Notes: generated by a model from the sequence alone, not told the origin. A DNA stretch of 64,000 nucleotides from Escherichia coli (GCF_011045215.1 NZ_CP049202.1); one strand, 5' to 3'; numbered from the stretch's first letter, positions 3,058 to 51,059 are shown. Program-made: numbers and translations.

Positions 3058-4650
3058 TTATTTATTGGTGAGAACCACGTTCCATGGCAGGAGTTCGTCA
3101 ACACGGTTGGAGGGCCATTCCGGCAGTACGCTCAGAATATGGCGCAGATACGCTTCCGGATCGATACCGTTCAGACGGCAGGTGCCGATCAGCCCGTATA
3201 GCAGTGCACCACGCTCGCCGCCGTGATCGCTACCGAAGAACACGTAATTTTTCTTTCCAAGACAGACTGCACGAAGCGCTCTTTCCGCTGTGTTATTGTC
3301 CGTCTCCGCCAGTCCGTCATCACTGTAATAACAGAGGGCGTCCCACTGATTCAGTACATAGCTGAACGCTTCGCCCAGTCTGGATTTTTTCGACAGCGTG
3401 CCATTCTTCTCCACCATCCATTCATGCAGCGACGTCAGTAACGCTTTGCTTCGCTGCTGTCTGACTGCAAGACGCTCTGACTCTGGTAATCCCCGTATCT
3501 CATCCTCGATGGCGTACAGTTCACTGATTCGCTTCAGGGCTTCTTCTGCCGTCGCACTTTTGCTGCTGATGTATACATCGTGGATTTTTCTCCGGGCATG
3601 GGCCCAGCACGCAACTTCTGTCAGCGCACCACCTTCACGTTCTGCACTGAACAGCCTGTCATAACCTGTGAACGCATCCGCCTGCAGGATACCCCGGAAG
3701 GGGCGGAGGTGTTGCTCCGGGTGTTTCCCCTGCCGGTTCGGTGAGTACGCGAACCAGACCGCCGGAGGAGATGACGAACCCGCATTGCGATCATCCCGGA
3801 CATACGTCCAGATGCGCCCTGTTTTCGTCTTTTTCAGGCCCGGTGCCAGTACCTTTACCGGTGTGTCGTCAGTGTGAAGCTTGCGGGTATTCATCACATA
3901 ACGGTACAGGGCATCATTCAGCGGTGTCATTAACTGGCAGCACGCGTCAACCCAGTTGGAGAGTAATGCACGGCTCAGTTCGACACCCTGTCGGGCAAAG
4001 ATTTCACTCTGACGATACAGTGGCAGGTGTTCGCAGTATTTTCCCGTTAACACGCGGGCAAGTAATCCGGGGCCCGCGATACCACGCTCTATCGGGCGGG
4101 ACGGCGCCGGTGCTTCAACGATGCAGTCACATTTTATACAGGCTTTTTTTACCCGTTCTGTGCGGATCACTTTCAGGGCGCTGCTCACCAGTTCCAGTTG
4201 TTCTGCACTGACTTCCCCCAGATAATCCAGCTCACCGCCACACTCCGGGCAACAGCTTTCTTCAGACTCCAGACGCTGTATTTCACGGGGAAGGTGTGCC
4301 GGTAACGGACGACGATGGCGCGACTGTCGCAACTGGCGGGGAACCTGTGGATCGTCTTCCCGCCCACTGTAACGATCGCTGTCCTGTTCGCGTTGTTTCA
4401 GCAGGGCCTCAGCCTGTTCAACTTCACGACGCAGTTTTTCAGAACGGGTACCGAACAGCATCCGGCGCAGTTTTTCTATCTGAGCCCGCAGATGTTCTAT
4501 TTCCCGTTCATCTTCTTCGATCTTTTCTTCGGCACGTGCCAGTGCAGAGCGCAGGAAGGCCTCCGTCTCTTCAACCAGACTCAGTTGCTGGTCTTTCTGG
4601 CGGAGCTGGCTTTCCAGTTCTGCAATGCGAATGAGGTATTTCTGACTCAT
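3058..4650 (-). CDS. tnpC: IS66-family transposase TnpC
   Basis: 530 aa; leucine-zipper N-terminus, CxxC zinc motifs, KYxEHLPLYRQ motif, DDE region, C-terminal LPWN. Confidence 0.9.
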   Translation of the reverse strand: MSQKYLIRIAELESQLRQKDQQLSLVEETEAFLRSALARAEEKIEEDEREIEHLRAQIEKLRRMLFGTRSEKLRREVEQAEALLKQREQDSDRYSGREDDPQVPRQLRQSRHRRPLPAHLPREIQRLESEESCCPECGGELDYLGEVSAEQLELVSSALKVIRTERVKKACIKCDCIVEAPAPSRPIERGIAGPGLLARVLTGKYCEHLPLYRQSEIFARQGVELSRALLSNWVDACCQLMTPLNDALYRYVMNTRKLHTDDTPVKVLAPGLKKTKTGRIWTYVRDDRNAGSSSPPAVWFAYSPNRQGKHPEQHLRPFRGILQADAFTGYDRLFSAEREGGALTEVACWAHARRKIHDVYISSKSATAEEALKRISELYAIEDEIRGLPESERLAVRQQRSKALLTSLHEWMVEKNGTLSKKSRLGEAFSYVLNQWDALCYYSDDGLAETDNNTAERALRAVCLGKKNYVFFGSDHGGERGALLYGLIGTCRLNGIDPEAYLRHILSVLPEWPSNRVDELLPWNVVLTNK

Positions 4651-4680
4651 GGCCGTTTTTATAATGCGGTCAGGAGTTTT

Positions 4681-5031
4681 TTACAACATTGTCAGTGAGT
4701 TAAGGCGGGATGTTTTTGGCTGACGCCAGTCCAGCTTATCGAGGAGCATTGCCAGTTGCGAACGGGTAATGGATACCTTGCCGTCACGTACCGCAGGCCA
4801 GATAAACTGGCCTTCCTCCAGGCGTTTGGTGAACAGGCACAGACCATCAGCATCAGCCCAAAGAATTTTAACGGTGTCACCCCGTCGGCCACGGAAGATA
4901 AACAGGTGACCGGAGAAGGGATTAACATTTAACACATGCTGTACCTGTTCACCCAGCCCGTTGAAAGACTTACGCATATCGGTTATCCCGGCAACGAGCC
5001 AGATACGGGTACCGGATGGGAGTGAGATCAT
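4681..5031 (-). CDS. tnpB: IS66-family TnpB (Orf2)
   Basis: 116 aa, conserved IS66 Orf2 sequence (WLVAGITDMR...LFIFRGRRGD). Confidence 0.9.
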   Translation of the reverse strand: MISLPSGTRIWLVAGITDMRKSFNGLGEQVQHVLNVNPFSGHLFIFRGRRGDTVKILWADADGLCLFTKRLEEGQFIWPAVRDGKVSITRSQLAMLLDKLDWRQPKTSRLNSLTML

Positions 5032-5447
5032 CTTCCCCTCCCGGTCAGTTCACGAATCAATACAGTGAGCAGCTCTGGTGAAGGATTTTCCAGTGTCATG
5101 TTACCGTGACGGAACTCCACCTTGCAGGAGCTGGCACTGACAGTAGTCTGAGTGGATAAGGGCGGAGTAAGAGCAGCCATCGGTTCTTTCGGCTCATCAG
5201 GCGTTATCTCTACAGGTAATAATTCAAGGCCTGCGTCAGAAGTGGTTGTCACCGGAAGACGCCGTGATATACGCCCTTCGTTTTGCCAGAGTCTGAGCCA
5301 TTTGAAAATAACATTATCATTGACGCCATTTTCTCGTGCAATCTGAGCCACACAAGCACCGGGTTGTGATGCCAGTTCAACCATACGAAGTTTGAATTCA
5401 TTCGAATACTTTTTACGAGGTTCTTTTCGCCAGTCCTGTAATTCCAT
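5028..5447 (-). CDS. tnpA: IS66-family TnpA (Orf1), HTH protein
   Basis: 139 aa; 4-bp overlap with tnpB; motif GACVAQIARENGVNDN. Confidence 0.85.
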   Translation of the reverse strand: MELQDWRKEPRKKYSNEFKLRMVELASQPGACVAQIARENGVNDNVIFKWLRLWQNEGRISRRLPVTTTSDAGLELLPVEITPDEPKEPMAALTPPLSTQTTVSASSCKVEFRHGNMTLENPSPELLTVLIRELTGRGR

Positions 5448-5532
5448 ACTTAGATGTCCGTCTGTGTCAGATGGGCGTCTAAGTTACCAATTCTTGTCTA
5501 ATGGCTACATACGGCGGTCGGTTTACGCTTAC

Positions 5533-6179
5533 GTATTTTTTCCACAGGACGTTCACGGATGAACTTCTCAATGCGATAAAGACCCGCGATTTTTCTCAGC
5601 GCCATGGCTGCACGGGGCTCCCTGCTGGCCTTATACAGACTGGCGAAGCCGCGTCTTGCGTGGCTCCAGCAACAGGCGGATGTGATACCGGGGTGATTAT
5701 CCGCCAGAGATTTGTACACGCTGTATCCGTCACTCACCAGCGTGCCACCACGCCAGCCCTGCAGGCAGGCCTCAGGATATCTGAGGGCCCGTCCGGTCTG
5801 CGAGTCAAGACAGACGACCGGCGGGCCGCTTCTTTCTCCGCTGACGTAAGCCCACAGCCAGCCGGAGCAGGATTTACCGCCTTTCCGGGTATCAAGGAGC
5901 CTCAGGGACGTTTCATCTGCATGAATAACATCCCGTGTCAGAAGCTCGTGGCGTAACAATTTTGCCAGCGGGGCCAGTGCAGCGCCAGCAACACCGACCA
6001 TATCCGCCATTGTACTGACGGGGAGCTCCACACCCATTCGGGAGAAAATGTGCTGCTGGCGATACAGGGGCAGATGGTCGGTATATTTGCTGATGACAAC
6101 CTGTGCGATGACCGATGGCTCAACAGCACTTTTCGGAAGGATATGTGCCGGCATTTTTCCGCTGAACACTTTCTCACAG
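5533..6179 (-). pseudogene. IS66-family transposase TnpC fragment (central region) of a third, disrupted IS66-family element
   Basis: Translation ...[22 protein letters not shown]...ACCWSHARR... aligns to residues about 190-400 of TnpC; bounded by IS66 copy 2 target duplication on one side and the IS66 copy 1 terminus on the other. Confidence 0.7.
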
Positions 6180-6209
6180 GTAAGCGACTCGTCAGAACCG
6201 TATTGATAT

Positions 6210-7781
6210 TTACTGAGAGCTCAGATCAACTTTCCAGGGCAACAGATCGCGTACCCGGTTTGCCGGCCAGTCCTGGATATGTTCAATGACGTAACGCAGC
6301 CACTTTTCTGGCTCCACATTGTTCAGACGGCATGTGCCGATCAGCGAGTACAACACCGCCGCATGTTCACCACCGCTGTCGGAACCCGCGAACATCCAGT
6401 TTTTCCGGCCTACGGCCACTCCCCGTAAGGCGTTCTCTGCGATGTTGTTGTCGATTTCCACCCAGCCATTACTGCAGTACACGTTCAGTGCATCCCACTG
6501 TTTCAGCAGGTATGCGAACGCTTTTGCCGTATCTGAGTGACGCGACAGTGTTTTCATCTGTTGCTGTATCCAGTCATACAGTGACTGCATCAGTGGCGCG
6601 GCTCTGGCTTTTCTTGCCGCCAGACGCTGTTCTGCTGAACAGCCCCGGACCTCTGCCTCGATGGCATACAGTTCACCGATACGCTGCAGGGCTTCCGTGG
6701 TGATGTAGGTGGGCGCTCTTGCATGCACATCGTGGATTTTTCTCCGGGCATGAGCCATACACGCGGCTTCCGTTATTCTGCCGGATTCGTATAACGCCCG
6801 GTAACCACCGTAAGCATCGGCCTGAAGCACACCGCTGTAACCGGCCAGGTGATTTTGTGGATGGATACCTTTCCGGTCCGGACTGTACGCGAACCAGACC
6901 GCCGGGGGCATCTGTGAACCGGCGTTACGGTCATCACGGACGTAGACCCACAGCCGGGCTGTCCGGGTTTTACCGCTGCCCGGCTCCTGGACCGGGACGG
7001 GGATATCATCGGCATGGAATTTACCGGGCATCAGCACATACTGGCGCAGTACGTCATACAGCGGCTCCAGCAGTTCAGCAACAGCACCTGTCCAGCGCCC
7101 CAGTGTGGCACGGCTCAGCTCCACTCCCTGACGACGGTATATTTCTGACTGGCGGTATAACGGCAGATGGTCTGCATATTTCCCGGTGACAACATGGGCC
7201 AGAAGCCCCGCTCCGGCATAACTGCGTGCAATGGGTTTTGAAGGTACTGGTGCCTGCACGATATGGTCGCACCGGCAACAGGCCTGTTTCGGACGTTGTG
7301 TTTCGATAACCTTAAAGGCGCTGCTGATAAGCTCCAGTTGCTCTGACACATCACATCCCAGAGAACTGAGTTCACCACCACAGGCAGGACAGCATTCCTC
7401 TTCCGGCCGGATAACCCGGGTTTCACGGGGAAGTGAGGCCGGTAACGGTTTACGGGCTGAAGACTGGCGCAGGGCGGATGGCAGTACCGGGTCATATTGC
7501 TCACCCAGCGTTTCCGCCATTTCTTCCTGAAGTGCGCTGATTCGCTCCTGTGCTTCCTGTATCTGCCGTTCGGTTTTTGCACGAAGTTTTTCTGAGCTTT
7601 TACCGAACTGCATACGTTGCAGTTTCGCAACCAGCGCCTTCAGCCGGTTGATTTCGGAAGCATAAGCCGCCACCCGCTGTGAGAGCAGGCGGTTGTATTC
7701 AGCCATCTGGCGGATGGTGTCCTGTTGCGTCTGCAACAGTGCCCGCAGGCGGGCGTTCTCATGAGCAAGTGAGGTGTCCAT
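6210..7781 (-). CDS. tnpC: IS66-family transposase TnpC
   Basis: 523 aa, colinear with the copy 1 TnpC ([12 protein letters not shown]-terminal LPWK). Confidence 0.9.
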
Positions 7782-7800
7782 ATCCTCACTTTACAACGGG

Positions 7801-8148
7801 TTATATGCGGATTCCAGCGCGTTCCGTTCGTTTCGGGTGCTTCCAGTTGATACCTTCAAGAAGCATGGATAACTGAGCCGGAGTAAGGTGCACCTTGCCG
7901 TCACGGGTGACTGGCCAGACGAAGCGGCCCCGCTCCAGGCGTTTGGTGAAGAGGCACAGTCCGTCACTGTCAGCCCACAACACTTTTATCTGGTCACCCC
8001 GGCGTCCGCGGAAGATGAACAGGTGTCCGGAGAACGGGGCATCCTTCAGGACGTTCTGAACTTTTGATGCCAGGCCGTTAAAGCCATTTCGCATATCGGT
8101 GATACCTGCAACCAGCCAGATACGCGAACCTGCAGGGAGAGATATCAT
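7801..8148 (-). CDS. tnpB: IS66-family TnpB (Orf2)
   Basis: 115 aa, WLVAGITDMR...LFIFRGRRGD. Confidence 0.9.
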   Translation of the reverse strand: MISLPAGSRIWLVAGITDMRNGFNGLASKVQNVLKDAPFSGHLFIFRGRRGDQIKVLWADSDGLCLFTKRLERGRFVWPVTRDGKVHLTPAQLSMLLEGINWKHPKRTERAGIRI

Positions 8149-8825
8149 CAGTGGCTGCTCCCTTTTATTTCGCGGATAAGTGTCTGTAATAACGCCGGCG
8201 TCAGTTTACCTTTAAGCCTGAGAGTTCCGGCCGGCAGAACCAGCTCACAACACAGACTGTCGGACGGTGTATTTATCTGCTCTGGTTCCTGTGCGGGGGC
8301 CGGGATTTTATTATCCGGCTCCGGCGTTAACGTCACGGGAAGCAGTGCCGGCATATTTTTTCCGGAAGGCAGCAGGCCACCTTTCCGGTATTGATGGCGC
8401 CAGTTGAAGAGCAGGTTATCGTTGATTCCGTTTTCCCGGGCGATCTGCGCCACACAGGCTCCGGGCTGCAGTGACTGCTCCACTAAGGCGATTTTAAACT
8501 CATAAGGGAAGTTGGGCCGCCGGGGACGTTTTTTTACCACGGGGGCTTCGGATATAACGGTGCTTTCAGGACGTACGACTGGTACCGTGGAAAATTGTCC
8601 GTAAAGGCAGGCATCAAGTTCCTGCTCCGACATGCCTGCGGGCAAAGGCCACGAAAGGCCAGCTCTCCGAAAGCGCACGAACATACTACAAACTGTTGAT
8701 TTTGGTACACCCAGGCGACGCCCGGCCACAACCCGGGGTAAATGTTCTTCAAAGTGAAGACGTAAAGCTTCAGTGATCCAGGTCCGGTGTTTCATACGAT
8801 AGTGTCCATTAAAAATGATGGACAT
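8148..8825 (-). CDS. tnpA: IS66-family TnpA (Orf1); true start probably internal
   Basis: C-terminal half matches IS66 Orf1 (GACVAQIARENGINDN); ORF-track N-terminal extension of about 80 aa is uncertain. Confidence 0.65.
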   Translation of the reverse strand: MSIIFNGHYRMKHRTWITEALRLHFEEHLPRVVAGRRLGVPKSTVCSMFVRFRRAGLSWPLPAGMSEQELDACLYGQFSTVPVVRPESTVISEAPVVKKRPRRPNFPYEFKIALVEQSLQPGACVAQIARENGINDNLLFNWRHQYRKGGLLPSGKNMPALLPVTLTPEPDNKIPAPAQEPEQINTPSDSLCCELVLPAGTLRLKGKLTPALLQTLIREIKGSSH

Positions 8826-8878
8826 TATTTTTGTAGAGCCGGAGGAAACAGACCAGACGGTTTAAATGAGCCGGTTAC

Positions 8879-9332
8879 TCTCACAGCAGGGACAGCTGTA
8901 CTGCGGACGGACATAGCGGTGGACCACAACCTGTGCGGGGATATATTCCATTTTCCCGCTGACTTCATCGCGAATGAAGTGCAGGGGGGCATCACAGTCA
9001 GGACAACGTTCCTCAGCTGGCGGGATAACCTTTTCAGCACGGGGAAGATGTGAAGGCAAGGGCTTACGAACAGGACGTGTTGTTGTTTTTTCTTCGTCCC
9101 CGGTCTGAGGAAGCAGTTTGTCCAGATACGCCGAGATTTCTGCGATATCCGCGTCAACATCCTCTTCGAACAGGGAACACTGCATCCCGGCCAGCGATTC
9201 GCATTTTTTACCAAAACGCTGCTGGCGTGCGAGCTTCATCTGCTCTATATGAACGCATCCCGTTTGCAAGGCTTTCGTAGTTTTGACATTGACGGTAGGT
9301 TGCAGCTCTATATCCGGCCTTGTTGCAGCCAT
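8879..9332 (-). pseudogene. IS66-family transposase TnpC N-terminal fragment (same disrupted element as 5533-6179)
   Basis: ...KLARQQRFGKKCESL...KPLPSHLPR...CPDCDAPL...YSCPCC matches the TnpC N-terminal region; interrupted by IS66 copy 2. Confidence 0.7.
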
Positions 9333-9517
9333 GAAGCTGCGGGCCCCTATGTAATACGCTGACTCGCGCCTTATTCTCCCAGCGAGCTTTAATCTCCAGA
9401 GCAGATTCAGGTTTAGCGAGTCCCGGTCTTACCTGTCGTTGTCATCACTACGGCTGCCCACGCAACCTTTCAGCATTCACCCTTTTGTAAAGAGTTTATG
9501 TTTATCGGTATCAGCGA

Positions 9518-10504
9518 TTAATAAGGCCTGATACTGACATGATTTTTGTCGTATTTACGTCCGTGAGCGGCTATTGCCCACACCGTTCGCGCCAGCTTGT
9601 TTGCCATTGCGACGATTGCCACGCTGGCCGGACGACGTTTTTTCAGTTCGGTTATCCACGGCCCAGGTTCTTTGGTCAGTAATGCTGCCGCCCTTGCACC
9701 ATGAATAAACAGGGTTCGCAGATATTTATCACCACGTTTGCTTATTCCCAGCAGGCGGATTTTTCCTCCTGAGCCTGTCTGTCTGGGCACCAGACCAACA
9801 TAAGCCGCGAACTCTCGCCCTGATTTAAACACTGATGCTTTCCCCATGATGGCCAACGCTGCCGTTGCAATAAGTGGACCAACGCCAGGAATATCCAGCA
9901 ACCGTCTACAGGTTTCATTCTGTCTCGCCACACTGGTAAGCTGTTTTTCTATATCATCTATCAGTGAGTCCAGTTCATTCAGCCTGTTGTACTGATTTTC
10001 CAGCACTGTAATGAGATACAGTGGCAGTCTCTCTTTCATCCGCTCCAGTGCTTCAGGGAACTCCCGTTCCATCGCTGCCCGACCTTTGTGGATGGTTTCA
10101 CCAAACTCCAGTAACGTCCCGTGCAGGGCATTAATTTGCGCGGTCCGGAACTTCACCAGTTGTCTGCGGGAACGGTGCAGAACCAGTATTGACTGTTGTT
10201 CTTCTGTTTTGACGGCGATTTCTTTACCTGGCTGCTGTACCGCCATCCAGATAGCTCGCGCATCCATCACGTCATTCTTATTGCCCATGACGAATGCTTT
10301 AACGAAGCGAGCCTGCAACAACCGGACTTTGTGTCCCTGCTTTGTTAATTCACGCGCCCAGTGCCGGGAGCCTCCACAAGCTTCCATGCCAATCAGGCAG
10401 GGTTCGCGGTTACTGAAATACGCCAGAAAATCCTGACGACGAACCTGCTTATCCACCACTTCCCCTGTGTGCTCATTGATGAAGTGAACCTGAATGACAT
10501 GTTT
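9518..10504 (-). pseudogene. IS110-family transposase, 3' part (codons about 13-340), separated from its 5' end by IS21 insertion
   Basis: ...LIGMEACGGSRHWARE... and C-terminal motifs of IS110/IS1111-type transposases; the ORF-track N-terminal 18 codons derive from the IS21 terminus. Confidence 0.75.
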
Positions 10505-10605
10505 TGTCAGCGCCAGTGATATAAGACGGTAATTCACCATTTGGATTGTCCGCTCCACCCAACATGTTGTTTCCTTAAGGTTCTCACACCAGAAAGGACA
10601 TCAAC

Positions 10606-12575
<1,970 letters not shown>

Positions 12576-33031: not shown

Positions 33032-33769
33032 TTAAGAAACTCTGCTTCTTTGATAAAGCTGGCTGATTATACTTACAACAGCTATACTTTTAGTTTTCTC
33101 CAAAAACTCTTCAGGCACAAATTTTTCTGAACTAAGTTCATTTTGGAGTAATGTAACAATCCTTGCTGTTTTATCTGCATATTTTTGCCATTCATTTTTT
33201 AATTCCTTAACACTCTCCTTACGCAATTCAATATCTGCATTAAGTTCGTTAACTGTCATTTTCAAAATTGATATGCTTCTCTCCAGTTGCTCATACTCAG
33301 ATTTAAGCAAAGCAGTATTAAGTTTTTCACGTTTTGCTATCTCTTCCTGCATCACCAGTTTTGTATCCTGGACAGATTGAGCTAACTTCTCAGCATTTAT
33401 CGCTTCCACTTTTTTATCTGCCGTTTCCTTCTGCATCTCATATTCAGCTATCAATGACTTTTTAAATCCTTCACGCTCCTTTGCTTCTAAATATCGTTTT
33501 GTCCATGCAATCCCATAATTTAAATATGGTGATATGACGGACAGAAAAATGCCTACTGTGACAGGAGCTACTAAATACAACCAATAGAACTTTTCAGCAC
33601 TTGTGATTTGCTCTATACGGGTAGTCACTGATGATTTACTCATAAACAGGATAGCCAGGTTTTGCCAGTTAAAGCCACACCATGAAAGGGTTATGTATCC
33701 CCATAATGGCTTTTTCAGACGCTCCTTAACAACGTCGTTTACAGAATCTGTGATTGACTCATTATTCAT
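33032..33769 (-). CDS. hypothetical membrane protein: two N-terminal transmembrane helices plus long coiled-coil
   Basis: ATG 33769 with GGGGGA Shine-Dalgarno; hydrophobic segments near residues 22-45 and 60-82; E/K/L-rich heptad region; about 33 percent GC. Confidence 0.6.
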   Translation of the reverse strand: MNNESITDSVNDVVKERLKKPLWGYITLSWCGFNWQNLAILFMSKSSVTTRIEQITSAEKFYWLYLVAPVTVGIFLSVISPYLNYGIAWTKRYLEAKEREGFKKSLIAEYEMQKETADKKVEAINAEKLAQSVQDTKLVMQEEIAKREKLNTALLKSEYEQLERSISILKMTVNELNADIELRKESVKELKNEWQKYADKTARIVTLLQNELSSEKFVPEEFLEKTKSIAVVSIISQLYQRSRVS

Positions 33770-34779: not shown

Positions 34780-35258
34780 ACTCTGTTCCGGCCCTTTGGG
34801 CCGGGGCGGGGCCGCTTTTCAGTTATGAGGGATGGGCACGGTGTTTCAGAACTGTGTCTGTCGGGGCCCGCCGCTTGCGGTGGGAGGTGCTTTTAAATTC
34901 TGAGCGGCGCGGCTTTGGCCGCTGCAAGCGAAGGCCTTTTTGTATTTGTTCATAGACGTTTCAGAGATAAAGACTTTCCCTGCGGTGGAACAACGCAGGG
35001 GATTAAATGAAGGGGGTAAGACTATATTGCAGGTTTGCTGTTTCAGGTTTGCAGCTTCTTAAAGTTCTTTGTTTGCGGATTTATGTGGATAACTGAAACG
35101 ACGTGGCCACGTTCTGACGACCGGTGAGAGATTTTATGGCCGTGTATGGACGGATGTGGGGATTTCAGGTGGTTACGGGGGATTTCTGGCCGGACAGAAC
35201 CTGCGCCAAAAGCCCCGAAGGGGCTGGCGATGATTCAGTGCTGAAGGAATGGTGTTGT
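34780..35258 (-). other. oriR: IncFII-type vegetative origin region (oriR-like), immediately downstream of repA
   Basis: Position downstream of repA as in R100/R1; GC-rich dyads and DnaA box present. Confidence 0.45.
35084..35092 (-). promoter_or_regulatory. DnaA box (TTATCCACA on minus strand)
   Basis: Exact consensus 9-mer, 167 bp downstream of the repA stop. Confidence 0.5.
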
Positions 35259-36281
35259 CTAGTGCGGTGGCGGGGCAGCCAGCGTCAGTTCAAGCTGACG
35301 CAACTCCCTGATGGCCAGTCGCTTCAGATGGTCATCGGAACAAAAATAGGCTTCATCCGGCGGCAGACGCTTCCTGAGATACTCTGCCATCTCATGAATC
35401 TGCTGGTCGGCAGGCAGTTTCTTCAGGCGATTAGCACGCTTACAGGCTGCAGCTTTCGCCCGACGGTGTTTCAGCGCATCCTGGCTGCGCTGCAGATACC
35501 AGCGTTTTCTGGCCGCATGTACGGAGATATCTTCATCCTCACGCAGTACACCTTCCCGGATGAGCTGCTGGCGGATTTCACTTTCACGCAGCCGCTTCTG
35601 CTGCTGTTCGTGAAGTTTAACCATATCGACGCCCAGCATCTGCCACCCTGCCGGTGTTATCCAGACATAGCGCGGCAGACGCTGGCGGGTTTCACGGTCC
35701 CACATCGTTTCTTCCGACACACCCAGCACACCAAAACGTACCTGTTCGGTCAGCAGACGGGAAAGCCGGGAGACCGTCACTTCCAGTTCCGGAATAACCT
35801 TCCCCTTGCTGTCTTTCGGGCTGATTTCTCTGGCCAGACGGGAAACACTCATGCCTACGGTATGTGTGCCCGCATCACTGAAGCTGACCAGAACCGGCCA
35901 GATGGCATCGAGGAGGCGTTGTTTTTCCGGACGGAAAGCATATTTGCGACCGGCGAACGTCCGTTTCTGCACGTAAAAAGGATGCAGAGACATGTGCATG
36001 CGCAGGCTCTGTTCGCCAGTCACCGGGTCCTTTTTCACCAGGCGGTGATAAGCGTGCCCAAGCTGCCCGCTCAGCGCCTTATAGCGCGCAGGACGATACC
36101 AGGTCGGATTTTCGCATTTGGGTTTAGTGGAGTGCTCACCACGACGACGCTTTGTGCGCTTCCTTTCCGGTTCAACCAGGAAAGTGGTCGCCCTTCCCGC
36201 TTCATAATCTTCCCAGAAACGGATTTGCTCTTCGGGAGGCAACTGAGCCCAGTGGCCTGGACGGGTATTTTTAATCACCAT
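35259..36281 (-). CDS. repA: replication initiator RepA (IncFII RepA superfamily), about 340 aa
   Basis: ATG 36281; internal blocks align with R100 RepA1 ([13 protein letters not shown] / [25 protein letters not shown] / ITRATRALTFLSE); basic C-terminus; oriR and DnaA box downstream. Confidence 0.7.
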
Positions 36282-36804
36282 ACCCACTCCGTAAGACAGC
36301 CAGACGTGCTTCAGTCAGCGCCAACGGAAATATCCCTAAAAACTCAAAAAAACGAGGCGTCAGCGTTATTGTGCAGCGCTTATTGTAAAAATCTGATGAC
36401 GGGGAACAGACTATAAACCCAAAATCTTCTTCCAGTGATTTAATTGCTCTGACAGCTCGCTCAATGGCTAAATGACCATGAGCATTTTTTCTGGCTAATC
36501 CGCAATCAAGTGCAAGTTCGGTTATAGAACGATGCACTTGATTTGAAACAGGATCGTAGTAGAAGCACATGCCTTGCAACAGTGCATCAATAGCTCTGCG
36601 ACGAAGAACGGAAGGCTTGCGTTTACGTTTACCATTAGCGCGCGCGCACGCAGAAGCTATATCGAATGCAAATGTTTCGGTAAACCCCACCGCTTTGCCC
36701 ATTAGCTTCTCACAGAACGGCAGCGTCCTGGCACCTTCACGGGGTGTGAATACCGGATTAGGGTTCTTTACCTGACGGTAATACGTTTGTTGAAGATCAG
36801 TCAC
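36271..36804 (-). CDS. RepA1 N-terminal-domain homologue (about 177 aa), truncated; status (pseudogene versus coupled leader ORF) unresolved
   Basis: [42 protein letters not shown]...[20 protein letters not shown]... closely matches the R100 RepA1 N-terminus as recalled; stop TAA overlaps the repA ATG (ATGGTGATTAA). Confidence 0.5.
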
Positions 36805-37669: not shown

Positions 37670-38152
37670 TCAGACTTTATAAAATAAGGTGTCAGGTGCC
37701 ACAACTGACTGGACAAAACCAAAACGCTCATAAAACGCTCTGGCGTCATCATCAATTGCATGCACCATAACCGCCTTAACGCCAACCTGTTCAGCCACAT
37801 TTACAACCCGGTGAATAGCATCACTCAGCAGCCATTTACCGAAACCATGCCCCTGGGTACAAACATCAACAGCCAGACGCCCTAACAGAACAACAGGAAC
37901 AGGATTAGGCATGTTATGCCGCAAACTGCGCCCAAGCTCGGCATGTGTGACGGAACCCGTAGCTAATGAGTAGAACCCCACAACACGTAAAGTCCCCTCC
38001 AGGCAAATAACGAACGTGCGGGAAGCATTGAGCATCTGGTTTTTCATAGCCCGACCACGTAACCAGTTACTTAGCACCTCATTTCCACAGTCAAATGGCT
38101 GAAGTATATGCTCATCCGTCAGCAATGCCGGCGCGGTGACATTTATTTCCAT
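37670..38152 (-). CDS. GNAT-family acetyltransferase toxin (TacT/KacT/AtaT-like)
   Basis: 160 aa GNAT fold motifs (...LGRLAVDVCTQGHGFGKWLL...); overlaps the upstream RHH antitoxin gene by 10 bp. Confidence 0.75.
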   Translation of the reverse strand: MEINVTAPALLTDEHILQPFDCGNEVLSNWLRGRAMKNQMLNASRTFVICLEGTLRVVGFYSLATGSVTHAELGRSLRHNMPNPVPVVLLGRLAVDVCTQGHGFGKWLLSDAIHRVVNVAEQVGVKAVMVHAIDDDARAFYERFGFVQSVVAPDTLFYKV

Positions 38153-44300: not shown

Positions 44301-46661
44301 CTTCGCACTGTCGCTGACGGAATGCCCGGGCGTTTCCACCCAGCCGTTCTCCAGCTTCAGTGCCGTGAACGGTGAATCAGCCACAGGCAGGGTGGCCGGT
44401 TCAGCCCGCCCCGGCACAACAACCGTCATCGCATCTTCACTGACGGATGCCACCTGCAGGCGGTCACCGCCGGAGACGCGGAGTCCGGGGATTTGTCCCG
44501 TCACCCTCAGACGCTCGCCGTCTGCCACCGGCATTTTTTCCGGCCGGAACAGCGACCAGCTGCTGTCCAGAGAAGAAATACGCACCACCTGCGTTTCACC
44601 CTGCGCATCCCGCAGGGTCAGGCTGTGACTCTGCGCCGTCACCCGGTCTATCACATAGCGGTCATGACTGCGTGTCTCCGGGTTCCACTGCTCCATCACC
44701 ATCCCCGGGCGGTACATATCCCGCAGATAACGGCTCCGGCTGTCCAGCCAGACCGGTGACAGGGCGGTCATGGTTACTTCCGGGTGTCCGAGCACGCCCT
44801 GTGTTTTCAGCTCACTGCGAATGGCCTGTGTCAGTATGGCCTGTTCCCGTACCCCGCTGACCTGTGCCACGCTCTCTTCTCCGGCTTTCACGCTGGCCGC
44901 AAAATCTCCTGCCAGCCGGGCATAGCGGACATTACGGTCCGGTTCACTGATGATGGTGGCCGGTCGCTGTTCTCCCCCCAGCCAGCGATATGTGTTCACC
45001 CCGGCATCCTTCATGGCCATCAGCGCACTGCCTGTACCGGTTCGCTGCCCGCTGTCGGTTATCAGGACCTGTACGTTATGACGTGCGGCACCGTCCAGCA
45101 GGGTTAACGTCTCTTTCAGGGAGAGTTTTTCGCCCTGGTCAACGATAACAGTACTGCCCGGCGTGAAGGCCATGCCTTCCAGCAACTGACGACGTCCGGT
45201 TATCAGCTCACCGGACAGCCGTTCATCCTGCTTCAGGTTCATCTGCGAGCGACGGTCAGCAGCGATAATCTGCACTTCCCGCCCCTGCTCCCGGGCCATC
45301 ATGACCAGTTCAGCCACCCGCTCACGCTGCCCGGCTGCACCGCCCTGCCCGGACACAATGGCCAGCGACGGACGGTCCTGTGCCAGAACACTGACCGCAT
45401 CGCTGTAACCAGCCGTCCGGGGGACACTTTTCTCCGGATGTACGGTCACCCGGTTCTGTTTCATGATGTCACGACTGAGTGCCCGGACGGACAGCTCATC
45501 GAGCACATGAATTCCTGATGTGAACAGCCCCTTCTCACGGTCGAGGGGGATGAGTTGCTCACGACTGATGGCCTCATCGATACCGGCGCGTGCCCGTTCA
45601 ATCACACCATTTTCCGGCGGCAGTATACCGACCGTTCTGGCCAGCACGTCCGTATACGTGAACTGCACTTTTCGTTCACTTAATCCGGCAATGGCCTGTG
45701 TCACCGCCTGCTGCACATCCGGCCCCTCCAGTGAAACAGCCCCGGGCGCCTGCGTGCGGGTCTCTGCCCGTTGCTCCGCCGCGTCACGATACGCCCGGAT
45801 ATCGAACCCGGTTTCCTTCAGTGTCTGCATCCACTCGGTCATTTTGATTTCAGGATCGACGTGCTGTTTGGATTTTCGCGTATCCAGTGCTGCCACATCC
45901 CGGGATTTCAGCGAGGCGTCTTCCCCGACGGCCTCCCTGATAGCCTGCGAACGACTGGAAAAGGCCTCCACCGGTACGCCCGGCATCTCCCACATCCCGT
46001 GCTTACCGACCACTTCGGTTTCATAGCCCAGCGCCTCAACCTGCTCTTTCAGCTTTTCCCGGTAGAGTCTGCCAAAGGCAATCTGATTAGCGTACACATT
46101 CTCAATGAACCCTGTTTTTCCCACTTTGTCACTGCTCAGTGTCTTCCACTCGCCGTTATGCTGTGTAACATTGGCCACCACCGCATGCGTGTGTAACTGT
46201 GGTTCCTGATCGCGACTGGTGTCGTGATTAAAAAGCGCCATCACCAGATTACCGGTCAGCACCGTTTCTGACTGTCCGTCCGTCATAACCCGTGTGGAGG
46301 CCAGCGCCTCCACCTGACGGACAGCAAAATCCACGGCCTGGTTATGTGCATCAATAAGACGTTTATCACCGCCTAACATGGCCATCACGGAGACACTTTT
46401 GGGGGCGGAGAAGGTCAGGTCGTAGCCGGGACGATGCTTATTACTGCCATCCTGCATGCGGCTTAAATCCGCTCCGTCCGGCAGCCTGCCCTCCAGAAGA
46501 CGGGTAAAAACATCCTTATCGACACTGCCCTGCAGCCCCAGCTGTTCAGCCCCCCTGCCGGCCCAGCGTTCTCCCATGCTGCCCAGCACATAGTAATTAT
46601 CCTTGTCGGTATAATAGTTACCGGCACTTCCGGCCGATCTGACCTGCGCGATACTCATCAT
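41391..46661 (-). CDS. traI: TraI relaxase-helicase
   Basis: 1756 aa; N-terminal relaxase domain, two helicase Walker A motifs (GYAGVGKT), F-type length. Confidence 0.95.
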   Translation of the reverse strand: MMSIAQVRSAGSAGNYYTDKDNYYVLGSMGERWAGRGAEQLGLQGSVDKDVFTRLLEGRLPDGADLSRMQDGSNKHRPGYDLTFSAPKSVSVMAMLGGDKRLIDAHNQAVDFAVRQVEALASTRVMTDGQSETVLTGNLVMALFNHDTSRDQEPQLHTHAVVANVTQHNGEWKTLSSDKVGKTGFIENVYANQIAFGRLYREKLKEQVEALGYETEVVGKHGMWEMPGVPVEAFSSRSQAIREAVGEDASLKSRDVAALDTRKSKQHVDPEIKMTEWMQTLKETGFDIRAYRDAAEQRAETRTQAPGAVSLEGPDVQQAVTQAIAGLSERKVQFTYTDVLARTVGILPPENGVIERARAGIDEAISREQLIPLDREKGLFTSGIHVLDELSVRALSRDIMKQNRVTVHPEKSVPRTAGYSDAVSVLAQDRPSLAIVSGQGGAAGQRERVAELVMMAREQGREVQIIAADRRSQMNLKQDERLSGELITGRRQLLEGMAFTPGSTVIVDQGEKLSLKETLTLLDGAARHNVQVLITDSGQRTGTGSALMAMKDAGVNTYRWLGGEQRPATIISEPDRNVRYARLAGDFAASVKAGEESVAQVSGVREQAILTQAIRSELKTQGVLGHPEVTMTALSPVWLDSRSRYLRDMYRPGMVMEQWNPETRSHDRYVIDRVTAQSHSLTLRDAQGETQVVRISSLDSSWSLFRPEKMPVADGERLRVTGQIPGLRVSGGDRLQVASVSEDAMTVVVPGRAEPATLPVADSPFTALKLENGWVETPGHSVSDSAKVFASVTQMAMDNATLNGLARSGRDVRLYSSLDETRTAEKLARHPSFTVVSEQIKARAGETSLETAISHQKSALHTPAQQAIHLALPVVESKNLAFSHVDLLTEAKSFAAEGTSFADLGREIDAQIKRGDLLHVDVAKGYGTDLLVSRASYEAEKSIIRHILEGKEAVTPLMERVPGELMEKLTSGQRAATRMILETSDRFTVVQGYAGVGKTTQFRAVMSAVNMLPESERPRVVGLGPTHRAVGEMRSAGVDAQTLASFLHDTQLQQRSGETPDFSNTLFLLDESSMVGNTDMARAYALIAAGGGRAVASGDTDQLQAIAPGQPFRLQQTRSAADVAIMKEIVRQTPELREAVYSLINRDVERALSGLESVKPSQVPRQEGAWVPEHSVTEFSHSQEAKLAEAQQKAMLKGEAFPDIPMTLYEAIVRDYTGRTPEAREQTLIVTHLNEDRRVLNSMIHDAREKAGELGKEQVMVPVLNTANIRDGELRRLSTWETHRDALVLVDNVYHRIAGISKGDGLITLQDAEGNTRLISPREAVAEGVTLYTPDTIRVGTGDRMRFTKSDRERGYVANSVWTVTAVSGDSVTLSDGLQTRVIRPGQEQAEQHIDLAYAITAHGAQGASETFAIALEGTEGGRKQMAGFESAYVALSRMKQHVQVYTDDRQGWTDAINNAVQKGTAHDVLEPKADREVMNAERLFSTARELRDVAAGRAVLRQAGLAGGDSPARFIAPGRKYPQPYVALPAFDRNGKSAGIWLNPLTTDDGNGLRGFSGEGRVKGSGDAQFVALQGSRNGESLLADNMQDGVRIARDNPDSGVVVRIAGEGRPWNPGAITGGRVWGDIPDNSVQPGAGNGEPVTAEVLAQRQAEEAIRRETERRADEIVRKMAENKPDLPDGKTEQAVREIAGQERDRAAITEREAALPESVLREPQRVREAVREVARENLLQERLQQMERDMVRDLQKEKTLGGD

Positions 46662-48814
46662 CAGAAATCATCTCCCGGCTCAACATCCTCCCCGCGCTCC
46701 CGGTGCACATTAATGTTCACCTCTTCACGACGCTGCATCTGCTGCTGGATGTCCGGATGATTTTCCTGTTGCCATGCCTCATAAGCGGCCATATCCACTA
46801 CTTCACCGGATTCACTGATCCCGGGTGGCAGTTGCTGTTCCATCTCTTCTTCCGGTTTCATTTTCAGCTCCTGCTCGATCCCCCCTGCCGGAACATTCAC
46901 ACCTGCATCTGACTTCTTATCATTGATGACAGAAGACACTGGCTGTTGTGGCTGTTCAGCCTGAACCACGTCTTCTCCGGAAACAACCTCCGGGACATCC
47001 GGTTCGAAGAGGCTGGCCATCTGGCGACCTTCTGCTTCTCTTGCGGCAAGCACGGCACTCAGGCGATTCTCCATTTCCGGATTGATTTCACGCGGAATAA
47101 ACTCCGGAGCAACCTTCGGACGTTCCTGATATTTCAGTGAGAGTTTTACTGCCGGATACGGTCCGGGCAGGGTGACATAACAGGTCAGATCCGGCAGAGA
47201 CTGAATGTCGGAATAACTGACCAGCGTCTGGCGCTCCATATCCTTACCGGTCGATACCCCGTCACGCACGGGATCAGCACCGTAGGAATACTGCTCGCTG
47301 GCTTTCAGGTGCTCTTTCTCACCAATTTCACCGGCAGCGAACTCTGCAATCTTATGGCTGGGAGAACGGAAAAAGGCACGGGTGTTCATGACGTCAAACA
47401 GCGTGGCAGCCGCTTTCTCACCGTAGATATCTTCCAGCTGGGCATAGGACTGGATACCAAATACATAGCAGCCACCAAACTTACGGGCTTCCGGCAGGAT
47501 CTCCACCAGGTCCGGCAGTTTGTGTAACGTGGGTAACTCATCACAGAAAAACCACACACGACGGCTACGGTTTTCTCCCATTGCCAGCAGACCACGAATG
47601 GCAATGGACAGCCACATGGAGATCACCGGCTTCAGGGAGGCATGGGTGTCGGCGTTCGACGAGATAAACAGCCAGCCGTTTTTCTGATCTTCCCGGACAC
47701 CACGCATCCAGTCACGGATGGTGAAGGGCTCACCGTTATGCTCAATCCCCTGCAGGTAACGGATGGCTTTCACGTAGTTGGTCAGCACAGCACGGATGGA
47801 AATCGCCGTTTTCTCGATTTTCTCTTCCACCAGGTTGGCCGCCGGTGAATTACGCAGGAAGGTACGCAGTTTTTCGATTTTGATGGAAAGCAGTGTGTCC
47901 ACCAGTTTGCTGTAACTGCGGTTGGGGTCATTACGCATCAGGTACGCCGCTTCCGCAAAAATGGTACGTCCTGAACCCTGCCAGAACGGGTCCTCTTTTG
48001 TGCCCATCGGGATCAGCGTGTTCGCGGTATTATCAAAATCCGGCTGTGTCAGGCACTCCTTCCACAAATCCCAGGCGGCACAGCGGGCATCCAGCGGATT
48101 CAGGATTTTATCGATGGAGGGATCATAGTAACTTTTAACAAATTCCCCTGAACGGTCATAAATCACCACCATATCTCCACGCTGACGGGCGTAGTTGGCC
48201 AGACGACGGATAACTTCCGACTTACCGGCCCCGACCGTGCCGTGCAGACAGAAGTTCTGGATTTCGGAATCCCGGATAATCGGCAGGTCGCCAATCCGTA
48301 TATCGGAGTCCTTGCCGTCTTTTTTCAGCATCCGGGCAACGTCTTTCGGGTTCTCCGTCAGCTGACGACCACCTGTGACTTCATTTTCGCTCTGTTGTTT
48401 ACCCTGACGCCCCAGAATCCAGGAGACAACAAAGAAGGTAATCAGGCAAATAACCAGTGCCACAACTGTGGCCAGAACGAATGCGGACCATAGCTGCTCT
48501 CCGCACCAGATCATATATTTATCATGCAGTACCTGAGCAGCATTCATCCGGAAGGTTTTGCCGTAATACTGGATCTCATATACCGGCTGGGACCTGATTA
48601 AATCCCGCATGCCTTCCAGCGTGGTACACCACCAGTAAATACAGCCGTTCACAAACGTCTGCCAGCTTATTTTTACCCATAAAACCAGACCAACGAGTAT
48701 CCAGAAAAAAATAAACAGGCAGTAAAGCATGATATTGGCGATCTGGCTGAACATGCGGATACGCATGGACGCAATCTGACCGCCCTGGGTCATATCCTTT
48801 GCGTTAAAACTCAT
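46661..48814 (-). CDS. traD: TraD type IV coupling protein
   Basis: 717 aa; N-terminal transmembrane helices, Walker A GTVGAGKS, Gln/Pro-rich C-terminal tail. Confidence 0.95.
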
Positions 48815-48864
48815 GATGAAACTCCGGGAAAATCTGGAACAGAGCAGAAAAGGATGATGTGGGA

Positions 48865-49602
48865 TTAATTCACAGAAACAGACCAGGTGTACCCTGTATG
48901 CCGGTGGTGATAACCGCCTGCAGTCCTGCCGGAAGAGACCTTCTTTGTAACAATGTCAGTCAGGCGCAATACTTCAGACCAGTCACTCCCATGCGGAAAC
49001 TGGATCTGAATAAAAAGGCGTACCCGTTCACGATGATCCAGAACTGTGTCCGGTTCATAAAGCAGACCACTATCAGGAGAAACACGGGACGTTTTATTGA
49101 TGAGTTCGTATTTATCGGCATGAGACAGTGATGAAAGCGCCCAGGTAATATTTTCGCCCTGATGACCATCAATACGACTGTTCCCCGGCGTCCAGGCAAT
49201 TTCCTGCGCATTCGCCACGATGATCTGTCTCGATACTTCTGCCAGCTTTTTTGAAGTACAGAATACCGGTGCCAGCACACACAGGGACAAAAAATTGCAG
49301 CTGACCGCTTCCGGTTTAACCGGACTGCTCCCGGATTTTTCAGGAAAAGATATTTTTGTCAGTATTTCAGTTAATTCCTTATGCCTGAGAGAGTTAATAA
49401 AGTGCATGACAAGCATCATGAGAAACAATATAACAATAAGCCCTCCGATAACCACTAAAAGGTCAGTATCAATATTATTGTTGTACAGATAGTCTTTAGT
49501 GGTCGCTGTATTATCCTGTATCACCGGGGGGTATTCAGTTACAGGCTTCTCAGTAAATTGATTATTCTCACCAACATATTCAGCGATATTGTCTGATGTC
49601 AT
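48865..49602 (-). CDS. hypothetical membrane-anchored protein inserted between traT and traD
   Basis: ATG 49602 with GGAG Shine-Dalgarno; 245 aa; single transmembrane helix ([21 protein letters not shown]) then a roughly 170-aa domain; no family recognised. Confidence 0.5.
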
Positions 49603-49804
49603 AATGACTTTCTCCGGAAGCTTCCGGCTTCGCCGGCAACACTTCACGGTCGCACAAAGAATTTGCACAACCGCTCAGTGTTTTCATATTTATTTCGGAA
49701 ACGCCGGGGAGAAATAAAATTTATTTTATTTCTTTCCGGGGTTGGACAACGAGCAAAGCGAGGCGTCAGTCAGGAGGCCGGTCAGACCAGCCTCCTGAAG
49801 ATAA

Positions 49805-50536
49805 TCAGAGAATATTTGCGATTGATTTGGCCAGCTGGTCTTCGAGAACAGGCTTCGCCTCTTCAAATTTCAGGTTAACCTTGTTCGCACTGGAGACCAC
49901 ACGGGTCTGGTATTTATGCTGGTTACCTGTTTCAGTACTGGTCTGAATTTTCGCACCTGATGTGCCCTGACGCAGGGCGGCAACATTATCCGTTGTCACC
50001 GTTGCCTTAGTACGCTCTGCAATCTGCACATCCGTGATCATGGTATAGTTCACATCTTCCACCATCGCATCTGCAGCCATACCCACCAGACCGGCAGCAA
50101 GGCCCACACCGAGTGTGGCACCGGCAGAACTGGAATTATATCCGGTGATACCGGCACCTAACGCTGCACCAACTGCTGCGCCTTCATAACCACGGTTCAG
50201 CCATCCCTGAGACTCCCGCAGATCCATCTTATCGGCCTTCAGCACATTCGCCTGAATCCAGTAGTAGGCTTTATCCGGAGAAGTCACCACCTGATATCCT
50301 TTTGCTTTCACAGCATCAGCAATTTTGCCCTGCAGCCCACTCATGTCTTTATCAGACGTGTTTTTGATCTGCAGAAATACCGTGCGTTCGCTGGCGGGTT
50401 CAAGCCAGATGGTCTCACTCATCTGAGTCTTCACCTCAAGGTTACGCTTCTTGATTGCTGTGCTCATCGCACCACACCCTGAAAGGGCCAGAGTGGAACT
50501 GACCAGTGCAACCATCATTAGTTTTTTTGTTTTCAT
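49805..50536 (-). CDS. traT: TraT surface-exclusion outer-membrane lipoprotein
   Basis: 243 aa; lipobox LALSGC; colinear with F TraT. Confidence 0.9.
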
Positions 50537-50549
50537 CCAAAATATCCTT

Positions 50550-51059
50550 TTAACTAACAGATTCTTTTTTGAACAGACCTATTACTGAGACTATTGCAGA
50601 GAGATTATAACGATTTATATCTATAGTATAAATAAAGGAAAAAATTACAAACAGAGTTATCGATAAAAAACCAAATAAGAACGTATGGGCGAAGGAAACT
50701 ATTGAAAAAACAATCACAAACAACAAGATATAAGTTTTGTTCTTATCATACATAAAAGATATAACTTTCGACTCATCTCTGAATTTTTTAGGGATAGCAA
50801 GATACAACATCATTCCATTAGTAATGGCAACAAAAAGGATAAACCCCATTACGCCACTAAAACATATATCAAATCCGGCATCTCGGATATCAACTTTATC
50901 TGCCAGCAAACGGAGAAATGTCGGCCATAATAAAATCCATAAAAATACATACCCCCCTGGCTTTATGACTTGTAATAATGGCGGAATATTAACACCCTCT
51001 ACAGAGAGTACATCCTTTAGTTTCTGTGTCTCCGTTTTTATATCATAGTGAGTAATCAT
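50550..51059 (-). CDS. traS: TraS entry-exclusion inner-membrane protein
   Basis: 169 aa, very hydrophobic, AT-rich; position between traG and traT. Confidence 0.6.

Follow-up and report, generated by a model that had tools for sequence, protein, structure and literature searches.

YhfA of F-like plasmids: a predicted membrane-anchored protein encoded between traT and traD, with a possible accessory role in conjugation

The stretch of Escherichia coli DNA analysed here (GCF_011045215.1, NZ_CP049202.1), referred to as the window, is 64,000 nucleotides long. An R100-type open reading frame of 245 codons followed by TAA occupies positions 48865–49602 on the minus strand, in the interval between traT and traD, and shares its strand with the whole tra operon. 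The upstream neighbour is traT (49805–50536, minus strand), which encodes the surface exclusion lipoprotein, and the downstream neighbour is traD (46661–48814, minus strand), which encodes the coupling protein; both were assigned from the ORF list and annotated homologues. Further upstream are traS, traG and traH, and further downstream traI, traX and finO. The entry exclusion gene traS (50550–51059, minus strand) is an F-type allele, which matches the NCBIfam model NF010304 with 257.6 bits for a cut-off of 173.

According to the six-frame list of ORFs and the raw sequence, the start codon ATG is at 49600–49602 and the stop codon TAA at 48865–48867. A Shine-Dalgarno sequence, GGAG, is read at 49612–49615 on the minus strand, 9 nt 5′ of the ATG. 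The 245-residue ORF with a good ribosome-binding site that the first-pass annotation had pointed out was thus recovered at exactly these coordinates. Initiation at an alternative GTG at 49668 would yield a protein of 267 residues. This form is unlikely and the ATG is the likely start, since the start of every homologue corresponds to the ATG (MTSDN, MMSDN, MSEN etc.).

Elsewhere in the window, a dense cluster of insertion sequences (3058–12575 and 23138–32635) comprises two IS66-family, two IS110-family, IS21, IS2 and ISKra4-family elements, and a fragment that matches the ISL3 family. Positions 17971–22353 contain a fimbrial operon of the chaperone-usher class, PefC/AfrB type, with the usher gene at 19231–21657 and a PefA-like subunit gene at 21805–22353. 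An AraC-family regulator is encoded at 27396–28241. Four putative ORFs have no NCBIfam match, at 16952–17797 (minus strand, 281 residues), 33032–33769 (minus strand, 245 residues), 35124–36416 (plus strand, 430 residues) and 37670–38152 (minus strand, 160 residues).

The protein encoded between traT and traD is 90.6% identical to WP_000199905.1 of R100 over 245 of 245 residues, with about 94.7% identity at the DNA level. The R100 gene, yhfA (NC_002134, 75462–76199), also lies in the traT–traD interval, and entries for the same protein in the AlphaFold database bear the title "YhfA". The length of 245 residues, the start context and the motifs are the same in both. Identity, traT–traD position, and architecture with its motifs all place the window protein in the YhfA family. 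On these grounds, the ORF is the orthologue of R100 yhfA, a gene already catalogued, named and annotated "hypothetical protein", so that its finding here is a rediscovery; this identity and the coding status taken together are as good as certain. The window allele is a rare one, with no more than a handful of database records above 95% identity to it. R100 YhfA (L005:2463-3200) has a cysteine at position 173, where every other representative of clades 1 and 2 (see below) has an arginine; the number and position of the cysteines of the C-terminal domain are not conserved between clades. The protein has been described as "found in R100 and not in F" (Ochi et al. 2009, PMC2762410). No paper characterising yhfA was found in the literature, where it is otherwise merely named, among backbone genes or as a hypothetical protein.

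The gene is widespread. A megablast search of PLSDB with the traT–traD interval matched 4,033 records, 1,770 of which span the whole query. A tblastn search with the window protein retrieved 1,933 PLSDB records, 1,795 of which align over 80% or more of the query. Nearly all carriers are plasmids of Escherichia, Klebsiella, Shigella and Salmonella with a conjugative MPF_F system, and 1,913 of the 1,933 records are typed conjugative. Among complete E. coli genomes in RefSeq, 1,209 of 5,426 (22%) contain yhfA, with 1,398 of 1,402 copies on plasmids. The initial view of a gene foreign to the canonical F map therefore stands in that nothing equivalent exists in F, but the gene is a named and very common R100 ORF, not an unusual insertion.

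The sequence between traT and yhfA (49603–49804, minus strand) has the potential to form three strong RNA hairpins, with a folding energy of −89.3 kcal/mol (z = −7.8 versus shuffled sequences). This spacer is also found in plasmids that lack yhfA, and therefore belongs to the end of traT and not to yhfA. Homology of this spacer extends from E. coli to Klebsiella, where it is partly conserved, and it presumably constitutes a terminator or a processing region of traT. On the other side, the stop codon of yhfA is separated from the ATG of traD by 50 nt without a terminator-like site. The Shine-Dalgarno sequence of traD (GGAG, 48822–48825, minus strand), 7 nt 5′ of its ATG, is inside the yhfA-bearing segment defined below. 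From the short gap and the location of this site, co-transcription of yhfA with traD is likely. A consensus scan for a promoter or terminator of yhfA gave results at chance level (three promoter-like sites versus 2.9 expected), and there was no match to Rfam around the gene.

The protein can be divided into four parts, all encoded on the minus strand. An acidic N-terminal tail with a net charge of −7 (codons 1–46, 49465–49602), predicted from charge counts to be periplasmic, precedes a single transmembrane helix (codons 47–69, 49396–49464), which is indicated by both the Kyte-Doolittle profile and AlphaFold2. A basic juxtamembrane linker follows (codons 70–100, 49303–49395), which is the most variable part, with a dN of 0.13 among close alleles. 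The remainder is a conserved α/β domain (codons 101–245, 48868–49302), delineated from alignments and the AlphaFold2 model and predicted to be cytoplasmic. The only strong hydrophobic segment comprises residues 48–66, with a Kyte-Doolittle score of 3.2, and the AlphaFold2 helix extends over residues 46–85, in agreement with the single transmembrane helix proposed at the outset. Residues 99–117 were considered as a second membrane span and rejected: the Kyte-Doolittle score, 1.7 in clade 1, falls to 0.8 in Klebsiella, and the segment is modelled as a β-strand of the core. A C-terminal domain of roughly 170 residues had also been proposed. The helix is indeed followed by 176 residues, but about 30 of these form the linker and the conserved domain itself is about 145 residues long.

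The N-terminal tail has a net negative charge, −3 to −7, in 8 of 8 representatives drawn from three clades. In the same 8 representatives, there are two to five Lys or Arg in the 15 residues that follow the helix, versus none or one in the 15 residues that precede it. By the positive-inside rule, this charge distribution points to an N-out/C-in orientation, and YhfA is predicted to be a bitopic inner-membrane protein with a periplasmic tail of about 46 residues and a cytoplasmic conserved domain.

In the AlphaFold2 models, the core of the C-terminal domain consists of a strand, a helix, a strand, a helix, and a final two-stranded hairpin. The pTM for the domain alone is 0.67. The models are moderately confident, with pLDDT values of 58 and 67, and the most conserved loop is their least confident part. 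This central stretch contains the most conserved motif, W-x-P-G-x-S-R-x-D-G-x-Q-x-x-N-x-T-W. The domain also contains the motifs L-x-L-x-V-x-A-P, R-L-x-x-Q-I-Q, A-G-G, and G-Y-T-W.

Selection was estimated by the Nei-Gojobori method, by comparing the yhfA allele of the window with eight other alleles from public records. The dN/dS of yhfA is 0.22–0.33, while that of traT is 0.02–0.08 and that of traD 0.07–0.11 at the same loci. Compared with these neighbours, the dN/dS is about three to four times higher and dN alone is four to five times theirs. Each region of the protein has a dN/dS clearly below 1 (0.22–0.38). The excess of synonymous changes was significant in five close allele pairs (binomial P from 2e-5 to 1e-10). 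Purifying selection therefore acts on the gene, but is about three to four times more relaxed than on its neighbours. The signal is frame-specific, with pN/pS at 0.31 in the annotated frame, the alternative frames giving 1.24 and 1.10. Both the ribosome-binding site and the coding potential, on which the first-pass annotation could have foundered, hold up. The synonymous excess, the frame-specific pN/pS, and the existence of homologues with 20–31% identity and the same architecture and position all argue against yhfA being open by chance. With the single strong transmembrane segment and the shared layout of diverged homologues, a genuine and uncharacterised gene for a membrane-anchored protein is confirmed.

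An alternative frame of 106 open codons exists within yhfA (48960–49280, minus strand). Many 213-residue "variants" of the protein in databases are frameshifted copies that read this alternative frame and end in ...TGLKYCA. They are mostly singletons from automated assemblies, and may be sequencing errors or real pseudogenes.

Neither HMM nor structure-based searches connected YhfA to a characterised family or to an informative fold. Pfam gave no match, either with the single protein or with every member of two alignments. The same was true of NCBIfam, including the TraS model NF010304, and of PHROGs, for YhfA of any clade. In PADLOC, four of five further representatives were without match, and the sole match, with E = 0.02, covers the transmembrane segment. 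The PDB contained no match by sequence or profile. A phmmer search of 1.84 billion representative proteins retrieved close relatives only, plus one spurious match to a repeat protein. When the single protein, the clade-2 protein, and the domain profile were run in a word-indexed search against 5.8 billion proteins, nothing but the family itself was retrieved, and tblastn found no copy in phages. With the full-length and domain models, Foldseek returned from AFDB50 the family and weak matches to uncharacterised enterobacterial proteins. These matches were set aside as unusable for function, since the confidence of the models is low and α/β matches are generic. The C-terminal domain is without detectable relative outside F-like plasmids of Enterobacteriaceae.

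Within these plasmids, the family extends beyond the R100-type proteins, which form clade 1. A second clade was found by tblastn in IncFIA/FIC-type E. coli plasmids, where a protein of 230 residues (UTU32611.1) with 31% identity is encoded directly after traT. Used as a query, this protein reached 3,539 plasmids, including those of a third clade. The latter consists of proteins of 229 residues, such as WP_014343485.1 and WP_004198206.1, that are encoded in the traT–traD slot of Klebsiella IncFII(K)/FIB(K) plasmids, with about 20–24% identity. These ORFs share with yhfA the slot, the strand and the architecture. They differ from it by their length of 229–230 residues, by identities of only about 20% (Klebsiella) and 31% (FIA/FIC), and by N-terminal tails that are unrelated in sequence. 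No previous annotation or paper linking the Klebsiella and FIA/FIC ORFs to yhfA was found. In all clades, the C-terminal domain retains P139-G140, R143, D145, W154, P176, G179, P184, Q201, G229-G230, and G237-Y238. Between the window and L002, dN is 0.78 for yhfA and 0.56 for traD, which is a divergence of the same order between clades.

All the homologues examined (L001, L002, L005-L013) are on the tra strand, between traT and traD or, where traT is missing, immediately 5′ of traD. Where one neighbour is absent (traD in L001, traT in L010), the gene keeps its place beside the other. L010 (GCA_014465515.1; L010:1-4494 and 6001-8614) has a context similar to that of the Shigella virulence plasmid, with intact yhfA and traD. 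Its upstream genes encode a polysaccharide deacetylase, a glycosyltransferase, a lipid A acyltransferase, and a DUF535 protein. The gene therefore survives in a degraded tra region. It is single-copy in every match listed by the searches with the clade-2 and Klebsiella proteins, and very few second copies are present in clade-1 records. The idea of an unusual insertion between traT and traD was abandoned on the basis of this comparative map, with about 1,800 PLSDB plasmids carrying the gene and diverged homologues in the same slot.

Insertions do occur nearby. In the FIA/FIC-type plasmids CP100030.1 (L002:5571-6570) and CP057785.1 (L003:5435-6578), a DUF2726 gene and vapBC separate the yhfA-like gene from traD; the yhfA-like copy of L003 is unannotated, matches 33% of the query only, and is probably degraded. 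In a Salmonella contig (ABRRAA010000014.1; L011:9029-9654), genes for a PIN-domain protein and a MazE-like antitoxin lie on the opposite strand right after traD. This pair occupies the position where traI normally starts, and is a further instance of cargo inserted into the distal part of the tra operon.

F-type plasmids lack the gene. Alignment with pECAZ146_1 showed that about 63 unrelated bp replace 48820–49621 of the window, with flanks that are about 99% identical. The segment that is present or absent (minus strand), also apparent in the coverage pattern in PLSDB, includes yhfA with its own ribosome-binding site and the ribosome-binding site of traD. About 2,000 further PLSDB plasmids match the flanks only, with a coverage of 47% in two pieces spanning about 762 bp, and these F-type plasmids with an empty site are typed conjugative. 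The observation that F carries no gene at this place was therefore correct. The filler was considered as a remnant of yhfA and discarded, as its similarity to the gene is no greater than that of shuffled sequences. By itself, the filler sequence consequently gives no direction for the event in F-type plasmids.

Loss has also occurred in the Klebsiella clade, where the gene is full-length in 1,671 plasmids while about 650 others retain its first 38 codons only. In the latter (NZ_CP098346.1, L014:3501-3614), a clean deletion of 647 bp has left these 38 codons with the ribosome-binding site and start codon, so that a short peptide could still be made. In clade 1, many database entries are truncated, frameshifted or interrupted by insertion sequences, and large clusters hold truncated forms. 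The occupation of the same slot by deeply diverged homologues in Klebsiella plasmids indicates that presence is probably ancestral and the F map derived. On the simplest reading, yhfA is probably a long-standing constituent of the tra operon in this branch of F-like plasmids, and has been lost repeatedly, including in the F lineage. The empty F-type sites, the Klebsiella deletions and the large clusters of truncated forms argue for its being dispensable. An essential Tra or T4SS component would be present in all transfer-proficient F-like plasmids; yhfA is not.

The flanks of yhfA in the window are closer to those of plasmids without the gene than to those of most plasmids that carry it. The 3′ part of traT and the 5′ part of traD are 99% identical to yhfA-less plasmids, while yhfA itself shares only about 95% identity with the common allele. 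An F-type traS (50550–51059) is paired with an R100-type yhfA (48865–49602). The combination of flanks resembling those of yhfA-less plasmids, a rare yhfA allele, and an F-type traS shows that the region from the exclusion genes to traD is mosaic, and is evidence of recombination.

Recombination has also acted within the gene. Compared with the window, the N-terminal tail, helix and linker of L007, which stands for a cluster of 59 sequences, are essentially unrelated (dN of 0.6–1.5), while the C-terminal domain is almost identical (dN of 0.037) and traD has a dN of 0.018. This contrast shows that the N-terminal module has been exchanged at the domain boundary. The GC content is 38% for codons 1–100 and 49% for the C-terminal domain, giving 44% for the whole gene, to be compared with 32% for traS and 52% for traD. 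The co-variation of YhfA, TraS, TraT and TraD was compared in nine loci, a sample too small for statistics. The same type of N-terminal module is found with at least two unrelated types of TraS, the F type in the window and the R100 type in R100, and different modules are found alongside near-identical TraD and TraT. In this small sample, the N-terminal module does not go with a particular allele of any neighbour. The neighbourhood is indeed variable. The opposite possibility, a common conserved hypothetical gene of F-like plasmids without variation, is right as to the first two attributes but not the last, given the presence/absence polymorphism, the module exchange, and the dN four to five times that of the neighbours.

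The favoured explanation is that the ORF is the orthologue of yhfA, encoding a bitopic protein that is an old and dispensable member of the tra operon and would act as a modulator near TraD or TraC. A probability of about 0.4 is assigned to this explanation as a whole. A role as accessory factor is suggested by the strict synteny over deep divergence, the exclusive association with MPF_F, the purifying selection, and the position directly upstream of traD. Through its membrane anchor, YhfA would hold its conserved cytoplasmic domain next to the transfer machinery, on the inner face of the membrane, where the partner could be the coupling protein TraD or the ATPase TraC. YhfA would modulate transfer without being required for it. 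This mechanism is proposed tentatively, with the odds leaning against it. A co-selection scan paired variation in traC with a partial overlap on yhfA, which is a weak hint in the same direction. If TraD is the partner, the N-terminal module would not set specificity, as that of L007 differs, with a dN of 0.7–1.5, while TraD is near-identical. The strong hairpins between traT and yhfA imply that transcription into the gene is not guaranteed. Its repeated loss in successful conjugative plasmids implies that it contributes to transfer only slightly or under certain conditions, if at all. Counting against an accessory factor are the absence of homology or fold match to a characterised protein, the lack of co-variation with TraD, and the repeated losses.

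Alternatively, YhfA could be a barrier on the recipient side, a third member of the traS–traT exclusion group that blocks or aborts incoming related plasmids, with specificity residing in the periplasm-facing N-terminal module. The gene immediately follows traS and traT, and the predicted inner-membrane location is that of TraS. The N-terminal module, which is AT-rich like traS and unlike traD (38, 32 and 52% GC), has been swapped as a unit between alleles with almost identical C-terminal domains. Exclusion by SXT/R391 elements, which is determined by cytoplasmic residues of small Eex proteins in the inner membrane, also lends credit to this possibility. It is nevertheless unlikely. YhfA has no sequence relation to TraS or to any exclusion family, and one type of N-terminal module occurs with two unrelated TraS types and is therefore unmatched to the TraS–TraG pair. 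Strong hairpins separate yhfA from traT, and it is the C-terminal domain and not the N-terminal tail that is conserved across clades. Exclusion in F-like plasmids is classically assigned in full to traS and traT.

It was also considered that yhfA is cargo, a gene for defence, anti-defence or addiction that benefits the plasmid from a permissive intergenic slot. In clade 2, the traT–traD interval also holds the DUF2726 gene and vapBC, L011 has the PIN/antitoxin pair between traD and traI, so that cargo is accepted in such intervals, and yhfA is polymorphic in presence between plasmids with 99% identical flanks. However, yhfA has never been seen outside the traT–traD slot; its three clades have diverged alongside the tra operon without moving between backbones. 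There is also no PADLOC or PHROG match in any clade and no phage copy, which makes this a poor candidate. That yhfA is a decaying relic devoid of current function, as the frequent truncated, frameshifted and IS-disrupted copies, the loss of the whole gene from F-type and many Klebsiella plasmids, and the dN/dS three to four times that of the neighbouring genes might suggest, is very improbable in view of the dN/dS of 0.22–0.38 in every region with a frame-specific signal, the length and architecture kept across clades of about 20% identity, and the coverage of at least 80% of the query by 1,795 of the 1,933 PLSDB copies.

A modulator acting near the coupling protein or TraC remains the preferred reading. 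In E. coli and Klebsiella, resistance and virulence genes are carried mainly by F-like plasmids, whose tra operon is deemed essentially fully mapped from F. The F map omits yhfA, which most non-F-type members carry directly before the gene of the coupling protein, and members of the YhfA family are present on over 3,400 plasmids sequenced from clinical and environmental sources. What is added here to the known hypothetical gene is its connection with the Klebsiella and FIA/FIC clades, the probable ancestral status with subsequent losses, the predicted topology, the exchange of the N-terminal module, and the absence of a characterised relative. Should YhfA modulate transfer or exclusion, it would help to explain the differences between transfer of the F type and of the R100 and Klebsiella types, and would add a component to a textbook system. 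A more ambitious view, rather doubtful at present, is that YhfA is an overlooked part of F-like conjugation. With a C-terminal domain that has no characterised relative, it might be a membrane-tethered gate of the coupling protein or of the T4SS ATPases, or a third determinant of exclusion or compatibility, with an independent specificity conferred by the exchangeable N-terminal module.

Among known systems, TraS has much in common with YhfA. It is encoded by a neighbouring gene and resides in the inner membrane; its gene is AT-rich and highly variable, with alleles that are replaced by recombination. TraS differs in being small and very hydrophobic without a soluble domain, and bears no similarity to YhfA. 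A second comparison is with the trb/art-class ORFs of F (trbH, trbJ, trbE, artA), which encode small, often membrane-associated proteins that are dispensable in the laboratory and variably present. Like yhfA, these ORFs are inside the tra operon; no homology to YhfA was detected, and tblastn of plasmids containing trb/art genes found relatives of YhfA in the traT–traD slot only. Finally, relaxosome accessory proteins such as TrwA of R388 are encoded just 5′ of the gene of the coupling protein (PMC5102898). Proteins of the TrwA type are soluble ribbon-helix-helix DNA-binding proteins, whereas YhfA matches no DNA-binding or other Pfam family and is membrane-anchored. What they have in common with YhfA is the position of their genes, immediately upstream of that of the coupling protein.
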